Source of the DNA: a virus
Lineage: Duplodnaviria > Heunggongvirae > Uroviricota > Caudoviricetes
Reading direction: 5' to 3' (one strand)
Virus record (IMG/VR): IMGVR_UViG_3300041405_000148
Location: 89,310-153,309 of that record
DNA: 64,000 nt
In this document: positions 2,632 through 50,269 of the stretch, piece after piece
How the letters are laid out: every line of letters starts with the position of its first letter
Numbering within the stretch: the stretch's first letter is position 1
The notes under the pieces: generated by a model
Seen by the model: only the letters and a program-made list of their open reading frames with translations
Told to the model about the DNA's origin: nothing
The model's database searches: none
Position numbers and translations under genes: made by a program

Positions 2632-3189
2632 ATGTCTATTCAAGAAAGAAATCGTGGCGGTGAAGGTGAACGTAATACCTACCAGAGGAAAAATATTTCT
2701 GAACGTGAAATAACAGGTCTATTAGTCAGTAACTTTATGACGATGTTAGAAGACTCGTTAACCACGGGAGTCAACCTGAGCTTTGAAAGTTCTGTTGTTA
2801 TTCAGCATCTTCATGACGATAGAGTACAGTGTGCATACCTCACTAATTTCTATCCTTTAGATGTTGAATTGGAGGTAGAAGAGCAGAAGGAAGTCATTCG
2901 CACCATGAGTTATGGTGGTTACAGTGGATTACCTGCTGTAATAAAAGAAATGCTGAGAGAGCAAGTCAAGAACATAGTAGAAGAAGTCGAGAGAGTTAAA
3001 CGTTTTCATCCAGACACTGAAGTAACAGTTTATTTCTCTCCTGCTGATACTCTTGACCATTGTGGCACAGTTGCTAAACCAATCTACGGTTGGATTATTT
3101 TTGGAGAAAAGTCTTACTTCCAATCTGAGTGTAGTTTTGTTGTCATCCCTCATGATGAAAGTAGTCGTGCATACATGAGTAAAGACTAA
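2632..3189 (+). CDS. hypothetical protein (185 aa)
   Basis: ORF preceded by an AGGAGAAG ribosome-binding site. Confidence 0.55.
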   Translation: MSIQERNRGGEGERNTYQRKNISEREITGLLVSNFMTMLEDSLTTGVNLSFESSVVIQHLHDDRVQCAYLTNFYPLDVELEVEEQKEVIRTMSYGGYSGLPAVIKEMLREQVKNIVEEVERVKRFHPDTEVTVYFSPADTLDHCGTVAKPIYGWIIFGEKSYFQSECSFVVIPHDESSRAYMSKD

Positions 3190-3238
3190 CTTTTGAAGAT
3201 CAACAATTGGCAACTTCGGTTGCCATTTACCTTGTAGG

Positions 3239-3667
3239 GTGATTATGGAAATTGAAATGAAAAGTGAATTTGAATTAAATGGTGAACAGTTCCCCATTGC
3301 AACTAATTTCCCTGCTTTAGATGAGAGAACATTACTTTGGGTGTCTTCGGGTGTCTATTTTGGTTATCCTAAAAGGGATATAATTTCTTTCTGTCAAATG
3401 TGCATAGGAAAGAGAGAACAAACATTGACGGAAGTCCTTTCTGGCACAGGTTATGTGCCGTATGATATTTTCCCAGATAAGAATAAGTTAATTGAAGAGA
3501 TAAATAAAAATCGTTACAACAAAGAGCCATTTAATGAGAAAGATACAAAAGCTAACTACTCTACCCTTGTAGAAAAAGCAAGGTATGACCAAAATATTAT
3601 AAAAACTTTACTCAGTAAGGATGAAGGTTTTATTAAAAAGGTCTATGAAATTCTAATAGCTTTTTGA
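3239..3667 (+). CDS. hypothetical protein (142 aa)
   Basis: ORF. Confidence 0.5.
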   Translation: MIMEIEMKSEFELNGEQFPIATNFPALDERTLLWVSSGVYFGYPKRDIISFCQMCIGKREQTLTEVLSGTGYVPYDIFPDKNKLIEEINKNRYNKEPFNEKDTKANYSTLVEKARYDQNIIKTLLSKDEGFIKKVYEILIAF

Positions 3668-4851: not shown

Positions 4852-5100
4852 ATGTTTTATCCAGAGTTAGTTACAAGGTACATGCAGATGCTATTAAACA
4901 ATGAACGTTTCTATCTTGACAAGTTTGACAACACTGACCACCTGATTTGGATGCTTAATGAACTCAGCAACAATCAGCAGCAATCCTTAACCAAGAAGCA
5001 TAGGTGGTTAGGTTACATCCAGCACAGCTTAATTGCTGTAGGGTTTACAGATGTAATGACTGAAAGAGACTACACAAGAGACCTGTTTAAGGGTGACTAA
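4852..5100 (+). CDS. hypothetical protein (82 aa)
   Basis: ORF preceded by a GGAGG ribosome-binding site. Confidence 0.5.
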   Translation: MFYPELVTRYMQMLLNNERFYLDKFDNTDHLIWMLNELSNNQQQSLTKKHRWLGYIQHSLIAVGFTDVMTERDYTRDLFKGD

Positions 5101-5123
5101 ACTAATTTTATTGAGGAGTTATA

Positions 5124-5558
5124 ATGAATAAAGTTAACACTGAGAAGTACACAGAATCGTTTGAACAATGGTTCAGAGATGTTGAAGCAGGGGATGATCC
5201 TAACTGGTCCTCACCTCCGTACCTGTCAGAAGAATGGTATCAATACCTTTCTCGTAGAGAGTTAGCGTTGGGTGCATGGACCAAAGCTGTTGAGGTTGCA
5301 CTATCCATACTGGAGCAGCTGGAGCGGGGTGGTGACTGGATTGAGTGCAGTGACAGGTTACCGCCAGACGAAACGGCGGTCTTAGTTAACTTCAATGGCG
5401 AGCCGAGAATTGGCGAACTCCGCTGGGATCATCCAACACATGAAGAATCTTATAAATCATTTCGGTATTGGGATTGCCCGTACAACGACGGGCAGCCTTG
5501 GGAGGTTTTCGATATCACACACTGGCAACCACTACCGGCACCGCCGGAAGGTGAATAA
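5124..5558 (+). CDS. DUF551-like phage protein
   Basis: C-terminal WIECSDRLPPDETAVLV motif characteristic of phage DUF551. Confidence 0.4.
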   Translation: MNKVNTEKYTESFEQWFRDVEAGDDPNWSSPPYLSEEWYQYLSRRELALGAWTKAVEVALSILEQLERGGDWIECSDRLPPDETAVLVNFNGEPRIGELRWDHPTHEESYKSFRYWDCPYNDGQPWEVFDITHWQPLPAPPEGE

Positions 5559-5561
5559 TCA

Positions 5562-5837
5562 ATGAAAGAAACTTTGCCCGCAGCATACAGGTTAGATGAT
5601 GAGTCTGTATGGGATCGTGATGACGTATCTGAAATGTACCCTGAGCTTGTAGACTACTGGAAATCTAAAGGTGCCACAGACATTGTAGTTATGCCATGTG
5701 GGCCTGTGGATGAAGATGTTCTTTATATTCATGGTAAGTTTCAGGGCTATTGCAGGATGCCCTTTGAATGGAAATTAAGAGAAGATCTGACACAAGACGA
5801 GCGCCCACCGAAAGCTAAGCAGAGGAGGACTAAATGA
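5562..5837 (+). CDS. hypothetical protein (91 aa)
   Basis: ORF. Confidence 0.45.
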   Translation: MKETLPAAYRLDDESVWDRDDVSEMYPELVDYWKSKGATDIVVMPCGPVDEDVLYIHGKFQGYCRMPFEWKLREDLTQDERPPKAKQRRTK

Positions 5838-6016
5838 AAGTGTACGCTTTAATAGAATCTCGATATGATTTTTGTAATACATGGGAAACCACTTATGCCC
5901 TCTATAAATACCAGGATACAGCTGAGTGGGAAAAACTTACATTAGAGGAATCTAATCAAGATGAACAAATAACTTACCACATTAAAGTTTGGACTTTAGA
6001 TGAATCTAAAATATAA
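5834..6016 (+). CDS. hypothetical protein (60 aa)
   Basis: ORF that overlaps the upstream stop codon. Confidence 0.4.
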   Translation: MKVYALIESRYDFCNTWETTYALYKYQDTAEWEKLTLEESNQDEQITYHIKVWTLDESKI

Positions 6017-6040
6017 ACTAGGTGAAAAGGGGAGGAAATA

Positions 6041-6457
6041 ATGTACGAACTATGTGTAGCATATACCACAGGAGATTCTTTTGGCAGCCATGCTGTTGAA
6101 AAAGATGAGCTTGGTATTGTTTTTGCAACAAAAGATCTAGCTGTCCGAGGTTTGAAAGATTTAGAAGAACACTACCGATACGTTGAACTTTACGATGAGG
6201 CTTATTATGAAAATAGTCCATTAAGCAAGGGGTATCCTGAAGATAAAACAAAAGAACAAATTCGCGTAGAGGCCTTAACTAAGGCTTGGTCATATTTTGA
6301 AAATACATATTCAGATAGCTGGCAATTTTCTATGTCTTTTGAGACAGGTTTAACTGACGGACGCACTTTTATCAGTTTACCTTATATAGGTTATTTTGAG
6401 ACATTAAAACGTGCCTGGGTGGAAGAGGTTAATACACCACTTGAGGTTAGATTTTAG
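6041..6457 (+). CDS. hypothetical protein (138 aa)
   Basis: ORF preceded by a GGGGAGG ribosome-binding site. Confidence 0.5.
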   Translation: MYELCVAYTTGDSFGSHAVEKDELGIVFATKDLAVRGLKDLEEHYRYVELYDEAYYENSPLSKGYPEDKTKEQIRVEALTKAWSYFENTYSDSWQFSMSFETGLTDGRTFISLPYIGYFETLKRAWVEEVNTPLEVRF

Positions 6458-6475
6458 TTCATTAAGTTAGAGGAG

Positions 6476-6835
6476 ATGAGCACAATGCATAACTGGAAAG
6501 GTATTTTACATGTCAAGGTGACTGATGACATTAGTAAAGTTAAATTGAATTCAGTAAAGGGGCGGGATGACTATAGTATAACATTCCCTTCTTCAAAAAT
6601 CACAGATGAAGAGTTAAAGGCTCAAGCGTATTTTAGATATTATCGCACCTCCCCTGTTATGGAGTTAGCGTATGGCCCTGCTGGGTTACAGTTTGATAAG
6701 CTCTTCATTGAAGATGGTGATTATCATAAAGAGGTTTACTCTGGTGCTATACCATACCTGATAACAAGGGTGGTAGGTAAGGTAATGTGTCCTGTAGGTG
6801 TCTTATGGCACATGTTGAATTATAGTGAAGATTGA
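6476..6835 (+). CDS. hypothetical protein (119 aa)
   Basis: ORF preceded by an AGGAG ribosome-binding site. Confidence 0.5.
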   Translation: MSTMHNWKGILHVKVTDDISKVKLNSVKGRDDYSITFPSSKITDEELKAQAYFRYYRTSPVMELAYGPAGLQFDKLFIEDGDYHKEVYSGAIPYLITRVVGKVMCPVGVLWHMLNYSED

Positions 6836-6872
6836 TCGCACAATAAATCTTTGGACAGACCTATAATAAACT

Positions 6873-7100
6873 ATGGACAACTCTATGTATTGTTTGCACA
6901 TTTACGGGAGAACTCAGTTAGACATGAAAAGCGATCAGCACAATGATGGGGTAAAGACACCTCTGGAGAGGATAAAAGAGCTACGTGAGAAAGGTATAGT
7001 TTTATTCCCAAATCTGTCCATTGAAGCTAAGAGATGTTTACTTTATATTGAAGATGAACCTATCATAATAGCTGGACAGTCCCAAGAGTTTGATAACTAA
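6873..7100 (+). CDS. hypothetical protein (75 aa)
   Basis: ORF. Its start shares the motif aactATGGACaactct with the downstream terminator repeats. Confidence 0.4.
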   Translation: MDNSMYCLHIYGRTQLDMKSDQHNDGVKTPLERIKELREKGIVLFPNLSIEAKRCLLYIEDEPIIIAGQSQEFDN

Positions 7101-7104
7101 ACAA

Positions 7105-7180
7105 TGGACGACTCTGGTCGCTGACTTAGGTCAGTTAGCTTTAACAAGCTAAAGTGCTTCGCACTCCGGTCGTCCTTTTT
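7105..7180 (+). terminator. composite hairpin: a split copy of the GGACGAC...GTCGTCC terminator enclosing two internal hairpins
   Basis: ggacgactctggtcg ... ccggtcgtccttttt, with ctgacttaggtcag and ttagctttaacaagctaa palindromes in between. Confidence 0.5.
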
Positions 7181-7240
7181 ATTGTATAAAGAAATGTAGC
7201 ATGTTATGATGTGTTCACTGAAAACAGATAAGGTGACGTT

Positions 7241-7402
7241 ATGGACGGTTTCGAATTATTTTTAATTGGTCTGATAATTCTATCAGTGATGCTGTTGGTA
7301 GGTTATATCATCTCAGCATGGTTGATGAGTACAAAAGGGTATATTAGCACAAAAGATAAGGAGGATTGTTGGATACTGCTATTACTAAGCAACTTACTAT
7401 AA
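7241..7402 (+). CDS. small membrane peptide (53 aa)
   Basis: ATG ORF encoding MDGFELFLIGLIILSVMLLVGYIISAWL, a hydrophobic helix. Confidence 0.35.
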   Translation: MDGFELFLIGLIILSVMLLVGYIISAWLMSTKGYISTKDKEDCWILLLLSNLL

Positions 7403-7412
7403 AGTTAAAAAA

Positions 7413-7440
7413 CTGTGGACGACTCTGGTCGTCCTTTTTA
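7413..7440 (+). terminator. rho-independent terminator (repeat copy 2)
   Basis: GGACGAC-tctg-GTCGTCC followed by TTTTT. Confidence 0.65.
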
Positions 7441-8263
7441 TTTGCACAATAAGCAGTGGACAGATCTGATCCGCTATGTCATAATCTCTACAGGTTATGG
7501 TCACTGGATTCCGTGGGAGACATTTGTGAAATCTGAATCTGAGCACATATCTGAATTTATTGCCACTGGTAAATTCCCTGAAGGTGCTATCTTTAAAAAA
7601 TTAAGTGTCCAGGGACTTTGGCAATATACCTGCCCGATTTGTAAAGATGATGAATACTGTCTCGCAGGGTTATGTGATGGTAATTTTAAATGTAACATCA
7701 GAAGCCTTAAAAGAGGGGAGTTGCCTTGTCGTTGCTCAAAGAAAGCAAGACTTTCAGGGGAGCAGTGGACGTATAGAGTGAGAAAGGAGTGTGAGAAACG
7801 GTCTTATACTTTCCTACGTTGGACTACCGAAAAGATAGGTTCGCACCATAAGTTTGAATGTGAATGTAGAATTCATGGGAAGTTTTCTTTAGCACCTAAC
7901 ACGTTGTTGAAGGGCACTGGTTGTGCTAAATGTGTGAATGTAAATCAGACACAAGCTTATGTGAATGTGATTAAGGATGGGGAGGTTGACCTTGGGATTA
8001 AGTATGGTATAACAAATGAAACAACAATAAGGTTGCGACATCAAAATAAAAGGAATGCACTTAAAATGGTAAATTTATGTGTCTTTAAATTCCCAAATTC
8101 AGGTCTTGCCAAGTTAGCTGAATTAAACTGCAAGAAGAGGCTAGGTAAACCATTACTTAAAAGGTTAGATTTAGTAGATGGATGGACAGAAACTACACAC
8201 ATAAATAACCTGGATATTGTGATATCCACATACAAAGAGTTTGGTGGCATAGAAATGAAATAA
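7415..8263 (+). CDS. Cys-rich protein, a possible free-standing endonuclease-like gene (282 aa; the true start is probably downstream of the hairpin)
   Basis: Several CxxC/CxC clusters and an HHKFECEC motif. The gene is bracketed by near-identical terminator hairpins. Confidence 0.4.
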   Translation: MDDSGRPFYLHNKQWTDLIRYVIISTGYGHWIPWETFVKSESEHISEFIATGKFPEGAIFKKLSVQGLWQYTCPICKDDEYCLAGLCDGNFKCNIRSLKRGELPCRCSKKARLSGEQWTYRVRKECEKRSYTFLRWTTEKIGSHHKFECECRIHGKFSLAPNTLLKGTGCAKCVNVNQTQAYVNVIKDGEVDLGIKYGITNETTIRLRHQNKRNALKMVNLCVFKFPNSGLAKLAELNCKKRLGKPLLKRLDLVDGWTETTHINNLDIVISTYKEFGGIEMK

Positions 8264-8271
8264 TCAATAAA

Positions 8272-8300
8272 ACTATGGACGGCTCCGGTCGTCCCTTTTT
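8272..8300 (+). terminator. rho-independent terminator (repeat copy 3)
   Basis: aactATGGACGGCtccgGTCGTCCCTTTTT. Confidence 0.65.
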
Positions 8301-8400
8301 CTTATAAATACTCCTTGCTTTGGACAGCTCTAAAGTGTATATTATACTCAATGAGGAACGCCGAAACTCGAATCCAAGACACTAGGGTTGTTTTGCAACT

Positions 8401-8418
8401 GAGATGAGAATTCATCTC
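8401..8418. repeat. palindrome gagatga-gaat-tcatctc (member of the GAATGA-N3-TCATTC family)
   Basis: Perfect 7-bp arms. Confidence 0.5.
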
Positions 8419-8874
8419 ATTATCAATTTTTAAACGGGCATTAGAAGCCCTGAAATTGATAACCTGACACCAAACCTGCCCACAGTTTACTTATACCATT
8501 TTGCAGATAAATCTTATAGAATTCTCTCAGGATATTATAATAATAAACCTGTATTTTCCCAATAATAACCCCTCCCCCGCAAAACAGACCCTAAAACAGG
8601 GTATGCCTTCCCAAAATATCCTCCAAGAAAATATCTAACATACTGATCTATTTAATCTTTTATCTTTTCCTCCCATACATTTCCTCCCCAAATTATAGCT
8701 AAATTTGTGTTTACCCCTTTCCCATATTTTACTGTCGCAATGTCTTGGGTGCTAAGCGCCGCCGATCCCCAGTCCTAGGCCAATCACAGAAATCCCAAAA
8801 TATCAAGAGAAAATAAAAATAAATATATCGCTTGACTTTCAGAACTGGCATGGTTTTTGCTGGAGGACAGCTTT

Positions 8875-8889
8875 GAATGAGAATCATTC
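8875..8889. repeat. palindrome GAATGA-gaa-TCATTC
   Basis: The same motif recurs four times at 22360-22475. Confidence 0.55.
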
Positions 8890-9059
8890 GCAACTACTTG
8901 AAAAGTAACAGCTAAACGACCGTTTACTAACTGTAACTCAGGTGAACCCGTGTCGATCTGTTAGTTAGTGAACAGTGAAACTATCACATCATGAACTCTT
9001 TCCGCTGAATACGAATCAATCTTATTACCATTAACATTTGCTTTCGCATCCGCCCAACT

Positions 9060-9076
9060 GAGAATGATTAGCATTC
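9060..9076. repeat. degenerate GAGAATGATTAGCATTC site
   Basis: Family member. Related sites also occur at 9011 and 22401. Confidence 0.4.
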
Positions 9077-9230
9077 CCATTTGTGCTGACTGAAAAATTT
9101 TTAAGAAAAACTTGACAAAGGGATAAAAATTTGCCTGACAATCTCACGTTATCCGTTCGATTTGCGACCAAATTTTAAAGGTGATAAACTAATTTACTGT
9201 TGACCGCAAAGCGGTTTAAGCTTTGCTTAA

Positions 9231-9523
9231 CTCACAGAGTGAGTACTATAGTTATTGTTAGCGAACATAATAACCAACCGAGGCGGTAGCCGCGTTGCGT
9301 TATTGTTCGTTCGCTAACGATTAGGTTTTTAATCATTTCTATAAGAAATAGTTGTTACTGTTAAGAATTACCGTAGGTAATTATTTTATAGCTAATCATT
9401 CATTCTTCTTTCAGGCGAACGAACAATTAGCAACGGAATAATCCCTAAAGGGGATTGTTACGGTTGGTTATTATGTTCGGCTCGCCGCCTAAAGCGTCTC
9501 GCCTCACTCACAATTAGCAACGG
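9231..9523. repeat. large dyad-symmetry element
   Basis: Perfect 19-bp inverted repeat cgaacataataaccaaccg (9262-9280) versus cggttggttattatgttcg (9462-9480). Inner 13-bp arm attgttcgttcgc versus gcgaacgaacaat. Central palindrome attaccgtaggtaat (~9367-9381). Direct repeats caattagcaacgg at 9424 and 9511. ctcacagagtgag hairpin at 9231. Confidence 0.6.
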
Positions 9524-9846
9524 TAATTTATTGCTCTGAATAAAAATACCTCAGAACATCGCTTATTCAATAAAGTGAATAACTATTCATGTAACATCGG
9601 CTAAAAGTGGTGATATGAGGTGAAAAGCTGTGATCTTGTTTTTGTGTATGGTGTTTAAAGAGCCTGTAAGCGATTCTAAGAGGTTTTATTGATAAGGTGT
9701 ATGGTAGGGTTGTCTTTCTGAGATGTCTTGTTTAAGCGGTTTAGTGAATAACTTCAGCGACTGTTATTGATAAGTAAAAGCTATTGGACTATTTCAGGTA
9801 AAAGAAAACCCGCTGTTAGGCGGGTTAATGTTATTCTAGATTTGAT

Positions 9847-10134
9847 TTATCTATCTTTTTCAACTTCATAAACAAAGTTAATCAGATCATCACAAACATA
9901 AAAAGTTGTGTGTATAGGGTTGACATTTGCATGGTTAGTGATCGATTGGTTATACTGACTTTCCAGCCAGTCAATATTTTCTTTGTCGTCTAACTGAATA
10001 CCACAAGTAAGGGCAACTAACATAACAGCGGTTTTCCGTGGTTCTTCAGTGTTCACCAGATTGATTTTAACGTCTAACACGTTGAAGCCGAAACGGTTAA
10101 CAGTGACGTGAACAAATGGAGTTGAAGTAGCCAT
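9847..10134 (-). CDS. hypothetical early protein (95 aa)
   Basis: ORF. Promoter-like TTGACG-N18-TATACT at about 10180-10215 on the minus strand. Confidence 0.5.
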   Translation of the reverse strand: MATSTPFVHVTVNRFGFNVLDVKINLVNTEEPRKTAVMLVALTCGIQLDDKENIDWLESQYNQSITNHANVNPIHTTFYVCDDLINFVYEVEKDR

Positions 10135-10548: not shown

Positions 10549-10884
10549 TCAGATAACGTAAACGTCGATATAGTCACCAACTAAATCCATGGTGAATTCG
10601 TAACCATCAACTGAAGAACAGCAATCCAGTGTCACCAGATAGCAAAGGCTACTTTTATCAATACTTGCCACTTGATAAAACCCGCCTTTAAGTGAATTCT
10701 TGACGATATCACCAACTTTTAAGTCTTTAGCTTTGACACGTGTCCGCACAGAAGCAATTGCAAGGATATCAGATGAATCGTATGATTTTGACAAGGAATT
10801 CAATGCTGCGATTTTAAATTTGATGGTCATTTGCTTAGTCTCTTTGATTAGCGGGAACCATTCCCGCCCTTCGATAAACATCAT
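10549..10884 (-). CDS. hypothetical protein (111 aa)
   Basis: ORF. Contains the conserved GCGGGAA-cca-TTCCCGC hairpin. Confidence 0.45.
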   Translation of the reverse strand: MMFIEGREWFPLIKETKQMTIKFKIAALNSLSKSYDSSDILAIASVRTRVKAKDLKVGDIVKNSLKGGFYQVASIDKSSLCYLVTLDCCSSVDGYEFTMDLVGDYIDVYVI

Positions 10885-11089
10885 ATCATAGTGAGCGGGT
10901 AGATCAACTATTCTTTTGTAAAGATTTAGAAACGAGAATCATTCTTATCTAGTAAATAACGTCCAGGCTCGGTGTTTGTCTCCGCCTGCTACCAGGTGCG
11001 CCGTTCGATATACAGCATAACAAAAAGGCCCAAATCGGTCAAGCCTTGAGCCTCTTTTATTTCCATCCTTTAAACTACCTTTCAAAGAA

Positions 11090-14265: not shown

Positions 14266-14454
14266 TTACCTCTTTGTTTCTTTCCATTCACCTGTCCAGA
14301 AGTAAATGAAAAACGGCGCCGCTATTACACAAGTATAAACCATGTAATCAAAAGAGGATTTTTTAGTCCCAGCATCTAAAGGTAAACAAAGACAAACAAA
14401 AGCTTGCATTATCCCTAAAAACGTGATAACTAAGATTATACTTGATTTACTCAT
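14266..14454 (-). CDS. small membrane protein (62 aa)
   Basis: ORF preceded by a hairpin-type promoter. Confidence 0.45.
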   Translation of the reverse strand: MSKSSIILVITFLGIMQAFVCLCLPLDAGTKKSSFDYMVYTCVIAAPFFIYFWTGEWKETKR

Positions 14455-14620
14455 GATCCACCTTCACCAGGATATCAAAGCCAAAATTTTCATTTGATAG
14501 ACGTTCTAAAATGGTGTAGCCCTTTGTTTCTATTTCAGCATGAATACCTTTTGACGTCCAGGCAGAAAAGAAACGTTTACGGGTATTATCATCAACTAAA
14601 TGAAAATGTTTATCATTCAT
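14447..14620 (-). CDS. small hypothetical protein (57 aa)
   Basis: ATG ORF (MNDKHFHLVDD...) whose stop overlaps the start of the downstream gene. Confidence 0.3.
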   Translation of the reverse strand: MNDKHFHLVDDNTRKRFFSAWTSKGIHAEIETKGYTILERLSNENFGFDILVKVDHE

Positions 14621-21757: not shown

Positions 21758-21860
21758 AAACCAATACAGAATTATTGATGAATGCTTTAGGTTGGCAGGG
21801 CGTCCTGGCGGCGATGCAGAAAATAGAATCTAAATAATTGTAGACGGGGGCGAAAGCCCC

Positions 21861-21869
21861 TGATATAAT
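21861..21869 (+). promoter_or_regulatory. extended -10 element TGATATAAT, directly after a GGGGC-GAAA-GCCCC hairpin
   Basis: Seen in sequence. The GC-rich structured segment 21875-22030 lies downstream. Confidence 0.4.
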
Positions 21870-21874
21870 GTCCA

Positions 21875-22030
21875 GACAGTAACAGAACGCCTCTCCAACG
21901 GCGCTAAACCTGGCTAGCATACCGGCAGCGGATGCAAGGTGGATCGCCCGCAACACGTCTTGATAAATTAAAGCCCGGTCACGTGTGTTATTAAATGGCG
22001 GTTGCCGGGTCGCCCCATAGGCGAGTCACT
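21875..22030 (+). ncRNA. candidate structured small RNA (GC-rich island in AT-rich DNA)
   Basis: Local GC-rich segment with multiple potential stems (gcccggtc / gccgggtc repeats). No ORF with a ribosome-binding site. Lies downstream of TGATATAAT. Confidence 0.2.
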
Positions 22031-22045
22031 AGAAAAAATGAGATG

Positions 22046-22215
22046 GTTAGACGTGATCCCATTTTTCATATTTCCTAAAAATCCAGGAAAATTTTTTCCT
22101 ATCACCAAATTTCACGGGAAAATTTTTTACTCTTAGGAAATTTTCGCCGCAAGAAAAAACCTCTTATATAATTTGACACGCAAGAAAAAACGTGCCTGCA
22201 AATTTTGAATTTTCC
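22046..22215. repeat. A/T-tract direct repeats (GGAAAATTTTTT x3, GCAAGAAAAAAC x2)
   Basis: Seen in sequence. Phased A-tracts of this kind are typical of bent origin or regulatory DNA. Confidence 0.5.
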
Positions 22216-22359
22216 ATTTTCCGGGCTAATGAGTTTTGTAAATATTCAAAAAATCGCTTGCTGTCTTTAGTGATTGTGTTATTATACCTGCATAAAGACA
22301 GCGGCGGGGAGAATTGACCCGGAGACAATCACCGGAGCTGGGCGCTATTCCGGTAATAC

Positions 22360-22475
22360 GAATGATTCTCATTCAAATGGATGAATACAAATCAAAATGA
22401 GAATGATTCTTATTAGCATTCAATATCTTGAATGAGAATGACTATCATTTGCAGATGAGAATGATTCTCATTCAA
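22360..22475. repeat. cluster of four palindromic sites of the GAGAATGA-TTCTCATTC family
   Basis: Sites at 22360-22374, 22397-22420, 22430-22450 and 22457-22473. These are the same motifs found at 8401, 8875 and 9060. Confidence 0.6.
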
Positions 22476-22616
22476 CCCAAAAATTTTTATCGGGATCTGA
22501 TTTTGGAGGTACACCCATATTTTCAGAAAAATTTCAAATCTGAAATTCCGAAACCTCCAAAATGCTAATTTGAAATTCCCGCCGGGGCAAATTCTCCGTG
22601 AAAAATAAATTCTGAG

Positions 22617-22625
22617 TGATATAAT
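22617..22625 (+). promoter_or_regulatory. extended -10 element TGATATAAT
   Basis: agTGATATAATt. An identical 12-mer recurs at 22668. Confidence 0.4.
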
Positions 22626-22667
22626 TCATGAGTTTGGGTAAAAATAAGGACAATTACTTTTTAATAG

Positions 22668-22676
22668 TGATATAAT
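22668..22676 (+). promoter_or_regulatory. extended -10 element TGATATAAT
   Basis: Second copy. The downstream 200 nt carry no ORF and end in a ggttgc/gcaacc hairpin. Confidence 0.4.
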
Positions 22677-22917
22677 TTAGTTTGAAAAATTTCAAGGACT
22701 TATTTGAAAATCTTGAGAATAAAGTTTTGGAGAAAATTTCAAATCTGTTTTCAATAAAGTCTAAAAATGCTAGTATTTATTTTCACTTTCAGAAGAAAAT
22801 TGTTGCGGATTCTACTGAGGATATAAAGTGAAAAAGGTTGCCATCTCCAGCAACCTCCAACTTTTCAGGGAAAGGGGTGTCAATTTATTTTAGTGTTTAC
22901 TTTTAAAATATCCTGCC

Positions 22918-24181: not shown

Positions 24182-25060
24182 CTACGCCAACCTTTTAAAC
24201 ATTTTAGCCAACTCTGTTACACTCAGCCCCATTTCAACTGACAATGCACTGATCTTATGCCCAAACTGTTCATCAACAACTGCCATGTTTTCACGTGTAA
24301 CAGGCTTCTCTTTGTCCAAGACGAGCACAAACTTGCTTGCATTATCTAAGACTTTACCTGAGAATGAACACGTCTTACGTCCCAGACGGGCTTTAAACTC
24401 AGCGTAGTTGATTGAAAACTCCATGCCATCTTTGGCTACGATCTCAGCCAGAGTTGCGTAATAACGTGCCACACGAACATCATCTGGAAGTTTGTAGGTG
24501 GTTTTCTTTTGAGTTGGTGCTGGTACGGCTTCGACTTTTGACATTGCTTTCTCCTCAATATTTGTATCTTCAATTTCTTGTTCAAGAATAACGCTTACCA
24601 CTGACTCTTGTAAATCGCTAAAGTGATTTTTGTAGAGATCTGTAGTAGGATTATAATTCATATCTGCCCGATACTTCTGCCTTAAGTGATCAAGATACTC
24701 TGGTGTTAGCTTTGTACGTAGAGCATCCAGGATCTCCAAAGAATCTTTACGGACACGGAAAGCTTTCACGTGACTCTTATCCAGCAAAGAATCCTTCATC
24801 TGGTTAGCTTGTTCACAAGTCAAACATAGATTACCCGGTTCATAACCAAGCTTATCATTAATACGTTCAATGGTTGGGACACGTTTATCTGTGAATGGTA
24901 AGCCTGTGTAATCACAATGACCTGAATTACGCTCAAACAGTACACGTAAGTCATTATGGTCTAAAGAAAACTTAATGCCACGTTTGTTTGCATTTGACAA
25001 TTTAGCTTTGTGCTTAGCATTTAATTTAGTAGTTGAGATTTTCATGTTGTCTCCTTTCAT
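24182..25060 (-). CDS. HNH homing endonuclease
   Basis: HCDYTGLPF...PTIERIND...GYEPGNLCLTCEQANQMK. An HNH motif with Zn-ligand cysteines. Confidence 0.7.
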   Translation of the reverse strand: MKGDNMKISTTKLNAKHKAKLSNANKRGIKFSLDHNDLRVLFERNSGHCDYTGLPFTDKRVPTIERINDKLGYEPGNLCLTCEQANQMKDSLLDKSHVKAFRVRKDSLEILDALRTKLTPEYLDHLRQKYRADMNYNPTTDLYKNHFSDLQESVVSVILEQEIEDTNIEEKAMSKVEAVPAPTQKKTTYKLPDDVRVARYYATLAEIVAKDGMEFSINYAEFKARLGRKTCSFSGKVLDNASKFVLVLDKEKPVTRENMAVVDEQFGHKISALSVEMGLSVTELAKMFKRLA

Positions 25061-46987: not shown

Positions 46988-47569
46988 ATGTCACTTAATC
47001 TGCAAAAAGGTTCTTCCCTGAAACTGACTAAAGATGATGGTAAAACTGCCCTAAATCGTATTCGTGTAGAGCTGTCTTGGAACCCTAACGAAGGATCTTC
47101 GCAGTATTCGTTTGACTTGGATGTAATCGGTGCAGTTTGTAAGAATGAGAATCTGCAAGCTGTTTCTGGTGAACATGTTGCTTTCTTTAATCAGAAGAAT
47201 ACTGCGGCTATCCAGGTATCCCCTGATAATACAACTGGTGCTGGCGATGGTGTAGATGAGTTCCTGGATATTACTCTGAACAATGTTCCGGTAGAAGGTG
47301 ACCGAATCCCAGTCCTGGTATGTATTTATGGTGCTCGTGGCAAGAATCAGAGTTTTTCTCAGGTAGATGGTGCAACAGTTGTGCTGCGTGATCTGGATAA
47401 CGGTAAAGTAGTTGGTTCTTGTAACATCTCTGAGAAAGGCTCATCTACAGATGAATCTCTGCTGGTAGGTGTTTTTGAGAAGCAGTCTGATGGCTCTTTT
47501 GTTTACAATCAGGTGAACGAGTTTTACAATAAGAGTTTTGAAGAGTGGATTGGTGTTTTCACTAACTAA
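46988..47569 (+). CDS. terD: TerD-domain protein
   Basis: MSLNLQKGSSLKLTKD...RVELSWNP...DLDVIGAV...GDG. This is the TerD/CABP fold signature. Confidence 0.75.
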   Translation: MSLNLQKGSSLKLTKDDGKTALNRIRVELSWNPNEGSSQYSFDLDVIGAVCKNENLQAVSGEHVAFFNQKNTAAIQVSPDNTTGAGDGVDEFLDITLNNVPVEGDRIPVLVCIYGARGKNQSFSQVDGATVVLRDLDNGKVVGSCNISEKGSSTDESLLVGVFEKQSDGSFVYNQVNEFYNKSFEEWIGVFTN

Positions 47570-47587
47570 GAGCAAATAAATAGATTA

Positions 47588-47614
47588 AGGCCCTTGTTTA
47601 GGAGGGCCTGTTTT
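47588..47614 (+). terminator. rho-independent terminator
   Basis: aggccc-loop-gggcct followed by gtttt. Confidence 0.5.
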
Positions 47615-47639
47615 AACAAAGATAAAGGAGATACTTAAC

Positions 47640-48230
47640 ATGGCAATTACTTTGGAAAAAGGTTCTAAACTCTCTCTGGATAAGTTCCAGGCATCAGACC
47701 TTAAAGTCCTTCGTGTAGAAATGACGTGGGATGCACCAGAAACCACAGGTTCAAAGTTCAAAACTTATGACTACGATTTGGATGTTATTGCTTTCATTAT
47801 TGATGAGAACAAAAAAGCTGTAAATAACTATAAACATTTTTGCTTCTTTGGACAGCAAGTCACCCCAGCAATCGAGAGTTCTGGTGATGACCTGAATGGT
47901 GAAGATGGTGGTGAATCCCTTCTGATCACACTGGATAATGTGCCAAAGAATGGTGTACAGATCCCTATCATCGTTGACTTACACAAGGCTAAAGAGCGTA
48001 AACAAAATCTGTCTCAGATGAAATCAGGTAACCTGCGTATCCTGAACCATGACACAGATGAGCTACTGGCTGAAGTAAACATGAGTCAGTTTGCAAGCAA
48101 CGAAACATCTTTCCTGTTTGCTTTCATCAACCGTACTGCAACAGGTTTTGAGGTAGAAAGTGCTCCAACAGGGTTTGATAAAAACATTCAGGATTGGGTT
48201 GATCTTTATGGAATTGACTTGAGCAAGTAA
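47640..48230 (+). CDS. terD: TerD-domain protein (second copy)
   Basis: MAITLEKGSKLSLDKF...RVEMTWD...DYDLDVIAF...GEDGG. Confidence 0.75.
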   Translation: MAITLEKGSKLSLDKFQASDLKVLRVEMTWDAPETTGSKFKTYDYDLDVIAFIIDENKKAVNNYKHFCFFGQQVTPAIESSGDDLNGEDGGESLLITLDNVPKNGVQIPIIVDLHKAKERKQNLSQMKSGNLRILNHDTDELLAEVNMSQFASNETSFLFAFINRTATGFEVESAPTGFDKNIQDWVDLYGIDLSK

Positions 48231-48250
48231 TCTTTAAGTGGTAATATCAA

Positions 48251-48273
48251 TGGGTGACAATAAGTCACCCATA
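48251..48273 (+). promoter_or_regulatory. perfect hairpin atgggtgac-aataa-gtcacccat (terminator or regulatory stem)
   Basis: 9-bp perfect stem. The following T-tract is weak. Confidence 0.35.
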
Positions 48274-48290
48274 TTAATTTCAGGAGTCTT

Positions 48291-49178
48291 ATGAGCACCG
48301 ATTATAAAAACCTTTTTAATACAAAGAAAGATTATTCTAATCTGTTTTCTAATAAGGAAAATACCCAATCACAACCTAAGCAGGAAAGAAACATGGCATA
48401 TAAAAATTTATTTGATAATGTTGTCAATGAAACAAAACCTGCAAGGGTTCAAACAACATTACCTCAAAAAGTTGTTGACCCACGAGTTGCTGATATACAA
48501 GCAATTGACCCTAAGATCAGCACACATGCAGTCATCGAATGGCTTGAAGCTTTTGATGACAACATGAAAAAGTTAACCCAAACTAATCATGGACTCTCTC
48601 AAAGAGAACTGGATTTGGCTATGGAATTCACTGATGGAAGACTCTGTGTCCAAGAGCTTTTTAATCAGATCAAGGCAACAGTTGCAACGCTGAAAGGGCC
48701 AGAAAAGAAAACAGGGTTTCTATCAAAGCTCTTTAACTCAGATCAAGAGTTTAAATTAAGTCAAGATTTGATCACACAAGTTATTCAGACAATTAGAAAA
48801 CTATTAGAAGATTTCAAAAATAAGTCTAAATATAATAATAGTATGTTTATTAAATCTGAGATGCGTAGGATCGAATCAAACATTTTTGATTTGAAAAGTG
48901 AATTGGAGTGTGCTAGAGTAGCTGCAACTTACTTAGTCAATCAAGATGATTTTAAAGGTGCAGCAAGACTTGAAAAGGTTAAGCAACTCTCAGGGTTAGT
49001 GAATGTCTCAGAGTTGCAATTAAAAAATACTTACAATCTTCTTGAGAAAGATATGGAAGCATATGAGAACTTAAAAGACGTGACAGTACCTTTTTTGTAT
49101 GCTAAGATCCAAGGATTAATGAGTAGTACTTTAGATTCTGAAGCACTCAATGTTATTAACGATATAAATAAACTCTGA
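48291..49178 (+). CDS. TelA-like (toxic anion resistance) family candidate (295 aa)
   Basis: All-helical protein with N-terminal Y(K/S)NLF repeats. Position is between terD and the HAD/PRTase genes. Sequence match to TelA not verified. Confidence 0.3.
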   Translation: MSTDYKNLFNTKKDYSNLFSNKENTQSQPKQERNMAYKNLFDNVVNETKPARVQTTLPQKVVDPRVADIQAIDPKISTHAVIEWLEAFDDNMKKLTQTNHGLSQRELDLAMEFTDGRLCVQELFNQIKATVATLKGPEKKTGFLSKLFNSDQEFKLSQDLITQVIQTIRKLLEDFKNKSKYNNSMFIKSEMRRIESNIFDLKSELECARVAATYLVNQDDFKGAARLEKVKQLSGLVNVSELQLKNTYNLLEKDMEAYENLKDVTVPFLYAKIQGLMSSTLDSEALNVINDINKL

Positions 49179-49189
49179 GGAGAGACACT

Positions 49190-50269
49190 ATGTCATACGG
49201 CAACCTTTTTACAACAGAAACAAAAACTGAATCACAGGCTACTAAGCCAACTAGTTTTGAACAGTCAGTTAAATCACTCCCTGTCCTTAAGGATGCAGAA
49301 GGTAAAGTTTACCCAATGGAGTTGAAAGACATTCAGAATTTTGGTATTGTTAAAAACTCAAAACAATCTGAAATCAATAACCAAATTCTGTCAAAGACAT
49401 TGGTCGCAGATAGTGGTGTAATGGCCCAGGGTTTTACTCAGATCATGGCGCTTTCCCAAAAAGTAGATATTGGATCTCTCTCTGATGGTAAAGTTGGCCT
49501 GTTTAAATCTATTCGTAATAAGTTTATTGATCGAAAAGCTGAGGTTAAAGCACAGTTTACAACTGTTCGGAGTCAGATCACAACCATTGCTTCGGAACTA
49601 AAGAACAACATTGTAGAGATGCAGAAAGAAGGTCAGTGGCTTGACCAAATGTACAAAGTCAATCTTGAAGAAGTACGTATGTGGGAACAAAACAAGGTTT
49701 TGGTTAATGAAGCCTTTACTACAGCAGAAGAATATTTGAAACATCTTGTTGACAATGGAGCACCAATAGAGCAAATTGAAGAGACACGGATGAAAGTTAA
49801 TGCGTTGAGCAAGCAAAGTGATAAAGTTAATAAAATGCATCAGCTTAGTGCTATTGCAGCGCCTGAGATCAGGATGATGCAGGTAACAAATTTCAACAAT
49901 ATTAATAAGTTTAATGACATTATTGAATTAACTATCCCATATTGGGAAAAGAAAATGTCACTTGCACTAAATGCTGAGAATCAGCGCAAGCAGATCGCAC
50001 AAGCAAAAATTATGGATGACTTCACTAATGATTTAATCAAAGAAACTGCTAAACAGGTTGGACAAAACATGGTAGAGTCAGCTAAAGCAAACCAGCGTGG
50101 TATTGCTGATGTAGATGTAATGGTAGAGGCAACAAACGTGATCATCAACTCTATTAAAGAGGTTGTTGAGATTGATAAAGAAGGGAATAATACCCGTAAA
50201 GAGAACGCCAAGAAGATTGAAAAATCGTTGGTTGACATGGAAGATACTCTACGGTCAGTACTTTCTTAA
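49190..50269 (+). CDS. TelA-like protein (359 aa)
   Basis: Size and helical character fit TelA/KlaA. N-terminal YGNLF motif shared with the upstream gene. Sits in ter context. Confidence 0.4.
   Translation: MSYGNLFTTETKTESQATKPTSFEQSVKSLPVLKDAEGKVYPMELKDIQNFGIVKNSKQSEINNQILSKTLVADSGVMAQGFTQIMALSQKVDIGSLSDGKVGLFKSIRNKFIDRKAEVKAQFTTVRSQITTIASELKNNIVEMQKEGQWLDQMYKVNLEEVRMWEQNKVLVNEAFTTAEEYLKHLVDNGAPIEQIEETRMKVNALSKQSDKVNKMHQLSAIAAPEIRMMQVTNFNNINKFNDIIELTIPYWEKKMSLALNAENQRKQIAQAKIMDDFTNDLIKETAKQVGQNMVESAKANQRGIADVDVMVEATNVIINSIKEVVEIDKEGNNTRKENAKKIEKSLVDMEDTLRSVLS

Follow-up and report, generated by a model that had tools for sequence, protein, structure and literature searches.

Which protein is meant to occupy the palindromic sites that cluster in two long non-coding regions of a large virulent phage genome? 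The question is raised by a stretch of 64,000 nucleotides of the virus record IMGVR_UViG_3300041405_000148 (Caudoviricetes; positions 89,310 to 153,309), hereafter the window, in which copies of a near-palindrome accumulate in region A (8264-9846) and region B (21758-22917). On every sequence criterion tested, these sites belong to the Fur box family, i.e., to the operators of the host iron-sensing repressor Fur (ferric uptake regulator), with binding and regulation being predicted from this likeness. The palindromes are accordingly Fur boxes by sequence, their binder is almost certainly Fur of the host, and it is very probable that the sites bind Fur in vitro. Similar arrays are conserved in at least three phage groups, which appear to recruit the iron sensor of their host by means of them.

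The palindrome family that the initial annotation had described in these regions is real. Its core GAATGA-N3-TCATTC, with at most one mismatch, has five matches in the window (8875, 9062, 22360, 22436, and 22459) against a chance expectation of 0.40, and five copies were reached in none of 100 dinucleotide shuffles; all five matches lie inside the two non-coding regions that had been named. The full repeat unit is a 19-bp dyad, AATGAGAAT-N-ATTCTCATT, of which the core represents the same dyad with its register shifted by 3 bp. Of the individual sites claimed, the one at 8401-8418 does not match the core at one mismatch or fewer and stands as a weak member of the family when read as a 19-mer (8403-8421), while the array of four separate sites in region B was confirmed and extended by overlapping sites at a 6-bp offset (22355, 22390/22396/22402, 22431, and 22454). 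Region A also contains weak sites at 9008 and 9014 as well as a site at 9057 that overlaps another at 9063. Both regions are long and gene-free as described, without any open reading frame (ORF) of at least 60 aa in 8264-9846 or 21758-22917 and without convincing small protein genes inside them, and each is flanked by convergent ORF blocks, rightward against leftward. A similar density of the motif in coding DNA, which would have pointed to a compositional artefact, was not found. The motif is not spread through coding DNA, since nine of the 15 matches of at least 15 bits fall in regions A and B, which together account for 4.3% of the window; a tenth match (10931) lies between genes. Two sites were found beyond the coordinates known before, a minus-strand module of promoter plus box at 11042-10931 and an isolated box at 14599-14617.

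The identity of the dyad was tested in both directions and without the textbook consensus. For a host matrix, a palindromic expectation-maximisation search with random seeds was run on 15 Fur-regulated intergenic regions of Escherichia coli K-12 (fepA-fes, fepD-entS, fepB-entC, ryhB, gpmA, fhuF, exbB, fecA, fecI, fiu, fhuA, cirA, tonB, feoA, and fhuE). The motif obtained de novo, AATGATAATAATTATCATT (17.4 bits), has a weak T/G at position 6, and a GAGAAT-type half occurs in several of the best host sites (ryhB, gpmA, fecI, fhuA, and exbB). With this host-only matrix the window yielded seven matches of at least 18 bits where 0.2 were expected from 200 shuffles, namely 22431 (24.0 bits), 22396 (23.7), 14599 (23.6), 22355 (20.8), 22454 (20.5), 22402 (20.4), and 9057 (18.8); the window sites range from 15 to 24 bits and the sites of E. 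coli itself from 12 to 28 bits. For the reverse direction, the same search was applied solely to the non-coding DNA of nine phage regions and resulted in the motif AATGAGAATCATTCTCATT. When 87.5 kb of E. coli DNA were scanned with this phage-only matrix, all of the top 15 matches lay in known Fur-regulated intergenic regions, which constitute 3.9% of the DNA scanned, with the best matches at ryhB (27.5), gpmA (27.4), and fecI (21.4); the same applied to 24 of the 26 matches of at least 8 bits.

Evidence from other bacteria points in the same direction. The Fur box consensus published for Xanthomonas campestris, AATGAgAATcATTctCATT (Blanvillain et al., 2007; PMC1790865), is identical to the one learned from the phage regions alone; it comes from a bacterium, where it was established for sites upstream of genes for TonB-dependent receptors, whereas the present sites belong to a phage whose relatives infect Klebsiella, Escherichia, Erwinia, and Pectobacterium. 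Among the matches listed, more than 120 stretches of bacterial genomes, spread over many phyla, contain the exact dyad, and about half of 28 randomly taken ORFs flanking these bacterial copies match families of metal or iron uptake (TonB-receptor plug, five; Fe3+-type binding proteins, three; ZnuA-type, two; siderophore-type Peripla_BP_2, two; FTR1 permease, one). Moreover, where sites in the window overlap, the offset is exactly 6 bp (22390/22396/22402, 9057/9063, 9008/9014, and 8403/8409), and in Fur clusters as described the shift between overlapping sites is 6 (or 3) bp (Chen et al., 2007; PMC2189734). The Fur clusters of enterobacteria, e.g., at ryhB, gpmA, fhuF, and fepB-entC (PMC2189734), share with the phage arrays the same 19-bp dyad, the score range, the 6-bp offsets, and the multi-site form, and both feature GAGAAT-type halves, as in ryhB, gpmA, and fecI. 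The host clusters mostly overlap the -35/-10 elements of an iron-gene promoter, whereas the phage arrays lie in long non-coding regions, downstream of promoters or without an evident promoter, and have no iron-related gene attached to them.

The variation among the sites is informative as well. A covariation test was made with those phage sites that reach 17 bits (66 unique ones). The position pair 6/14 occurred as G..C in 20, G..A in 17, T..C in 14, and T..A in 10 cases, so that 30 were complementary where 31.0 were expected under independence, and the other eight of the nine pairs behaved alike. The half-sites vary independently and therefore represent the site of a dimeric protein that accepts G or T at position 6 rather than a hairpin kept by pairing.

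In region B, a sigma-70 promoter is followed by a leader of about 55 nt with a GAGACAAWCACC core, the first Fur box, further boxes, and a tract of A5T5. The promoter as read from the sequence (22258-22285, plus strand) comprises TTGCTG, a 16-nt spacer, and TG-n-TATTAT and fires rightward into the array; it aligns at this position in 19 module copies from related phages. Between promoter and first box lies a conserved leader element on the plus strand (22296-22350; core GGAGACAATCACC, 22321-22333), of which the core GAGACAAWCACC is invariant in 15 sequences. Box B1, AATACGAATGATTCTCATT (22355-22373; 20.8 bits), starts approximately 63 nt past the inferred transcription start, and a first box beside the leader element is present in all relatives. 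It is followed by cluster B2 at 22390-22420, consisting of three overlapping sites with 6-bp offset (22390, 22396, and 22402; 15.5, 23.7, and 20.4 bits), by box B3, AATGAGAATGACTATCATT (22431-22449), which with 24.0 bits is the top match in the window, and by box B4, GATGAGAATGATTCTCATT (22454-22472; 20.5 bits). The A5T5 tract AAAAATTTTT at 22479-22488 directly follows the array. Only three copies of AAAAATTTTT occur in the whole window, and in two cases the copy stands immediately behind the last Fur box of an array (A and B); similar A5T5-6 tracts follow the arrays in the phages phiTE, Hena1, FBKp34, KP13-16, and T5.

In region A, an overlapping pair of weak Fur-like sites lies at 8403-8421 and 8409-8427 (8403-8427; 6-bp offset); they score 11.6 and 10.2 bits with the E. 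coli-derived matrix. A promoter-like element on the plus strand (8832-8860), read from the sequence as a -35 TTGACT, a 17-nt spacer, and a poor -10 TTTTGC, precedes the first Fur box of the region by 15 nt; the same layout, TTGACA-17-TCTAAA and then a Fur box, occurs in FBKp34 and KP13-16. This box A1, AATGAGAATCATTCGCAAC (8876-8894), scores 15.1 bits, and the GAATGA-N3-TCATTC core is matched exactly at 8875-8889. Two weaker overlapping Fur-like sites follow at 9008-9032 (9008 and 9014; 6-bp offset; 14.5 and 14.7 bits), of which syntenic counterparts, AATACGAAT..., are present in FBKp34 and KP13-16. Finally, box A2, ACTGAGAATGATTAGCATT (9057-9075; 18.8 bits), is overlapped at 6-bp offset by a second box (9063-9081; 15.5 bits), both together covering 9057-9081, and the array is directly followed by its own AAAAATTTTT tract (A5T5; 9093-9102).

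A third module, termed region C, is located on the minus strand at 10931-11042. Its promoter consists of TTGACC (11042-11037) and TATGCT (11019-11014), and a leader core, GGAGACAAACACC (10983-10971, minus strand), lies between this promoter and the Fur box GATAAGAATGATTCTCGTT (10949-10931, minus strand; 15.5 bits), with the next ORF starting at 10884. Homologues of module C occur as second modules in FBKp34 and in two IMG/VR contigs. Apart from these arrays, an isolated strong Fur box, AATGAAAATGTTTATCATT, was found at 14599-14617 (23.6 bits, the best of 200 shuffles reaching 23.4). It covers codons 2-7 of a 57-aa ORF on the minus strand (14447-14620) in the early-gene block and might render this ORF iron-responsive.

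The arrays are conserved among the relatives of the window phage, which is a virulent myovirus encoding DNA polymerase I, a primase-helicase, and a tellurite-resistance cluster. Among sequenced relatives, the nearest is the Klebsiella phage vB_KpM_FBKp34 (Stephanstirmvirinae; 76.7% amino-acid identity of the polymerase), which carries arrays at both syntenic non-coding junctions (13104/13219/13237/13264 and 25195/25224/25253). KP13-16, likewise a Klebsiella phage, has a syntenic array at the first junction, i.e., the counterpart of region A, and the region A layout is common only to these two phages; no match was obtained when region A was compared with the phage collection by blastn, an exact 19-mer scan of IMG/VR gave no closer relatives for testing this region, and no relatives of the flanking 95-aa protein were found in IMG/VR. 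The layout of region B recurs in phiTE (Certrevirus), Hena1 (Henunavirus), phiWec179 (Phapecoctavirus), and several IMG/VR contigs of 137-152 kb, and the order of promoter, conserved leader, and first box is kept in 19 module copies. In the five phage groups compared, the boxes are more conserved than the spacers (0.82 vs. 0.65, 0.33 vs. 0.16, 0.64 vs. 0.54, 1.0 vs. 0.79, and 1.0 vs. 0.89), with the number of boxes turning over between one and four. The first region A box of FBKp34, AATGATAATGCTTCTCATT, and that of KP13-16, AATGAGAATGATTATCAAT, show several differences, yet score 22.0 and 24.9 bits. By these comparisons of sequence, the boxes are maintained by selection in several phage lineages. 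The motif as such is common to Stephanstirmvirinae, Vequintavirinae, and Demerecviridae, and the exact 19-mer occurs in more than 120 viral contigs with G+C contents of 29-65%; matches of a 15-mer scan of viral contigs were mostly due to chance and were hence filtered.

The third of these groups includes the T5-like phages, in which the sites coincide with repeats annotated under other names. At 9468-9637 of T5 (AY587007), copies 1-4 of direct repeat C and the palindromes E-I are strong Fur boxes by sequence, for which the Fur matrix gives 20-27 bits at 9473, 9577, 9612, and 9618. Repeat Region 3 of the left terminal repeat, which harbours them, is the candidate injection stop signal. The array adjoins the 7.9% nick (9661) and spans the estimated shear point of first-step transfer at 9618 (Davison, preprint 10.1101/866236). 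The same preprint discusses DnaA boxes, and the word 'Fur' occurs in it 0 times. Salmonella phage NR01 has approximately nine strong boxes (2996-3270 and 3608) in an untranslated stretch of 750 bp, adjoining paired DnaA boxes. Repeat Region 3 of T5 resembles the window in the motif, the array form, the long untranslated region between converging gene blocks, and the subsequent A5T5 tract. The T5 array is situated in a terminal repeat beside pairs of DnaA boxes and the 7.9% nick, whereas the window arrays lack DnaA boxes in regions A and B; terminal repeats and nicks are not visible in a 64-kb window.

What, then, might the phages gain from these boxes? Of three ranked roles, an iron-responsive cis-regulation of the sigma-70 promoters beside the arrays is preferred, a reading taken from geometry that we hold with middling confidence, doubt and belief weighing about the same. 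In an iron-replete cell, Fe2+-Fur dimers would coat each array, and bound Fur would act as an operator or a roadblock limiting transcription by the host RNA polymerase through the non-coding stretch. The boxes of regions B and C lie just downstream of a strong sigma-70 promoter and the conserved leader, the first at about +63, and the first box of region A lies about 15 nt after the promoter-like element. In region B, the transcription thus limited would reach converging genes at their 3' ends, and in region C it would run into the next early gene. In an iron-starved cell, apo-Fur would leave and transcripts would extend, and the expression of this part of the phage programme would depend on the iron status of the host. 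Module C, which sits between a promoter and a gene start, supports such a cis-regulatory geometry, and Fur clusters between promoter and start codon are also known from E. coli (fepD-entS, fecA, and yddA; PMC2189734).

Several observations weigh against promoter control as the role of the arrays. The boxes of region B extend from +63 to +180 relative to the start site and do not cover the -35/-10 elements as in classical Fur repression, and downstream clusters of this kind repressed only weakly in E. coli (PMC2189734). The region A promoter-like element has a poor -10 and was not called by a simple promoter scan. Downstream of the region B promoter there is no gene on the same strand, and the regulated product would therefore be a non-coding transcript. 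The arrays of T5 and NR01 have no evident promoter firing into them, and the role shared across the phage families may therefore not be promoter control. Finally, the number of boxes varies from one to about 12, which fits a dosage or sink role at least as well.

A sink of this kind is the foremost rival to cis-regulation and, in our estimation, an unlikely though serious one. Here the arrays would act as decoys, soaking up host Fur as the phage genome replicates and derepressing Fur-controlled genes, either those for host iron uptake and RyhB or the Fur-boxed promoters of the phage itself, in which case a timer sensing the genome copy number would result. The strength of the phage sites, at or above that of the best host sites (24-27 vs. 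12-28 bits), the variation from one to about 12 boxes between relatives together with the unfixed positions beyond the first box, and the placement of the arrays in DNA free of coding constraint all suit such a function. In addition, E. coli contains approximately 5,000-10,000 Fur molecules per cell, and 10-15 strong sites on a few hundred genome copies would come to a similar number. The Fur titration assay, reportedly introduced by Stojiljkovic et al. in 1994, is said to rely on multicopy Fur boxes that derepress a Fur-controlled reporter; like the phage arrays it combines many strong Fur boxes with replicating DNA, the assay being a laboratory screen. Nevertheless, titration needs many genome copies and would thus act late, at a time when the host has been largely shut down by such virulent phages and, in the case of T5, its DNA degraded. 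Likewise, a sink does not need the strictly conserved position of the first box after promoter and leader, and Hena1 and one further relative possess just a single box at the region B locus.

Somewhat further from favour stands an architectural use of host Fur, which we regard as distinctly improbable. Bound Fur would then build a nucleoprotein structure serving DNA transactions and not transcription, e.g., an origin or terminus of replication, a packaging site, a barrier that keeps converging transcription and replication apart, or a part of the signal that arrests DNA entry. The position of the T5 boxes in Repeat Region 3, beside the 7.9% nick and across the shear point of first-step transfer, argues for this, as do the paired DnaA boxes adjoining those of NR01, the convergent transcription at all arrays seen (window A and B, T5), the AAAAATTTTT tract after each window array, and, behind array A, a 311-nt segment whose predicted fold is extreme (z = -8.3) and which contains a perfect inverted repeat of 19 bp. 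On the other side, no origin, terminus or packaging site has been mapped in this phage group, the two-step injection is known only in T5-like phages, module C is an ordinary intergenic leader, and the replication origins of T5 are reported near the genome centre (10.1101/866236). The window contains eight DnaA boxes where 12 are expected, none of them in region A or B. An iteron array at an origin, as the initial annotation had also considered, does not agree with the sites, which are dyads and not same-sense repeats, are spaced irregularly (41/35/23 bp), and are not accompanied by an enrichment of DnaA boxes; no initiator was identified in the window, and the AT-rich candidate there is just the A5T5 tract.

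The general idea of operator-type dyads bound by a protein is thus supported, unlike the phage-encoded repressor, initiator or partition protein that had been proposed as the binder, for which the likeness to Fur boxes would be coincidence or mimicry. In favour of such a protein, the phage consensus prefers GAGAAT where E. coli has GATAAT, which makes a slightly different protein preference conceivable, and many small ORFs of unknown function surround regions A and B. Still, GAGAAT halves occur in the strongest Fur sites of E. coli (ryhB, gpmA, fecI, fhuA, and exbB), and in the phage sites the GATAAT-type and GAGAAT-type halves mix freely. A phage protein would lead one to expect a lineage-specific motif, yet the motif is found in Stephanstirmvirinae, Vequintavirinae, Demerecviridae, and more than 120 viral contigs of 29-65% G+C as well as at bacterial iron promoters. 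The window, moreover, gave no Fur homologue in a tblastn search, the query of which was an approximate sequence. A phage-encoded binder is very unlikely because the matrices match in both directions, the host Fur box is common to three unrelated phage groups, and its bacterial copies are flanked by iron-uptake genes.

Least of all, and scarcely to be credited, the palindromes could act as hairpins in a transcript (small-RNA scaffold, processing site or repeat-RNA antitoxin mimic), an idea which draws on the transcription of the region B array, if its conserved promoter is active, and on the hairpins of 6-8 bp that each dyad can form in single-sequence folds, and which is largely refuted by the absence of compensatory change between the independent halves of the 66 phage sites. 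The leader without consensus structure, the folds, which are no more stable than shuffles (z -0.5 to -1.5), and the T5 and NR01 arrays without an evident upstream promoter likewise speak against it. Rfam offered nothing credible, neither for the whole window at gathering score nor for regions A and B at a permissive E-value, and a search for tRNA and tmRNA in the window found none.

Fur boxes are textbook elements, and their presence on phage DNA is not new in itself. The E. coli K-12 genes nohA, ydfK, and ynaE are presumably prophage genes. Fur clusters are located at each of them (Chen et al., PMC2189734), and the sitABCD operon of lambdoid phages brings a Fur-box operator onto temperate phage DNA (PMC6969025). 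In these temperate phages and prophages, as here, operators of host Fur are carried on phage DNA; there they are single operators at the promoters of cargo genes and integrated into the host regulon, whereas the present ones form conserved multi-site arrays near the consensus, located in non-coding junctions of strictly virulent phages. No published report of Fur-box arrays in virulent phages, or of the T5 repeats as Fur boxes, was found in the full-text literature searched, which covered few papers from subscription journals, and an earlier report is possible.

With this assignment, the 'direct repeat C / palindrome E-I' elements of T5 receive a concrete identity, and the part of a host factor in the two-step injection can be tested with a fur mutant. 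A wider proposal, to which we attach little probability, holds that at least three unrelated groups of large, virulent Enterobacterales phages recruit the abundant host Fur to conserved arrays for a purpose beyond ordinary promoter repression; in T5, where the array spans the point at which first-step transfer halts, Fur on the entering DNA could therefore contribute to the long-sought, host-dependent injection-stop signal, and in FBKp34- and rV5-like phages the arrays could form a sink that frees Fur-boxed phage promoters as genome copies rise. In any of these roles, the phages would read, or manipulate, the iron status of the cell. This may be of relevance for phage therapy, as the iron-starved infection site is its normal battleground and the phage receptors FhuA, FepA, and CirA are Fur-controlled.

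Besides the Fur boxes, the surrounding non-coding DNA features further elements. The 55-nt element GAGACAAWCACC...TG..CG..ATT is always located between an early-type sigma-70 promoter and the first Fur box and forms two module classes per genome across Stephanstirmvirinae and Vequintavirinae, with the window copies at 22296-22350 (plus strand) and 10995-10955 (minus strand). No consensus RNA structure was found for this leader element, and single-sequence folds were not unusual; a protein site, a recombination cassette or an RNA sequence signal would each be conceivable. T4-type phages are said to possess promoter-early stem-loop (PeSL) cassettes, reportedly described by Arbiol et al. in 2010. 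The module of promoter, GAGACAAWCACC element, and box resembles these cassettes in combining an early sigma-70 promoter with a conserved downstream segment that is repeated in the genome and common to diverged phages, whereas the phage GAGACAAWCACC element has a Fur box coupled to it and no supported stem-loop.

A second conserved non-coding element (...ACGGCGCTAAACCTGGCT...AAGGTGGATCGCC...) lies about 400 bp upstream of array B at 21841-21965 on the plus strand and has its own promoter, TAGACG-17-TATAAT (21841-21869). Erwinia phages carry it with 85% identity, and it can be recognised in phiTE, phiWec179, and FBKp34. The pairs predicted for this element never vary, whereby support from covariation is absent, and a consensus structure was not found; it may be an unclassified small RNA. 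Downstream of the array, between 22520 and 22760, region B contains other repeats (AAAATTTCAAATCTG and GAAAAATTTCAA, two copies each) as well as an extended -10 promoter, AGTGATATAATT, that occurs identically at 22615 and 22666. All of these point rightward to a hairpin with a T-run on both strands (22833-22858), which was called a terminator by the scan on the minus strand only; the arrangement suggests further short non-coding transcripts. Next to region B, a 292-aa ORF on the minus strand (24182-25060) matches the HNH-endonuclease and the phage 'decoy of host sigma-70 / Srd anti-sigma' families of PHROGs.

In region A, the 311-nt segment at 9225-9535, just downstream of the array, has a predicted fold of -108 kcal/mol compared with -67 kcal/mol in shuffles, and its inverted repeat is located at 9262-9280 / 9461-9479. 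The segment has no Rfam match and could represent a cruciform or a large structured RNA; at the corresponding position, FBKp34 and KP13-16 contain an analogous 'cgaacata...tatgttcg' structure. Upstream of box A1, a C-rich part of the window (8560-8700), which repeats CCTCCC and contains the phrase AAAATATCCTCC(A/C)AGAAAATATC, is also conserved in the A regions of the same two phages, although blastn shows no overall similarity there. Elsewhere in the window, a cluster of tellurite-resistance genes (TerD family) extends from 46988 to 50269. When 20 kb of the window were searched by megablast, the sole match was the TerD gene of the Xanthomonas jumbo phage XaC1, to which about 760 bp of DNA are 74.6% identical.

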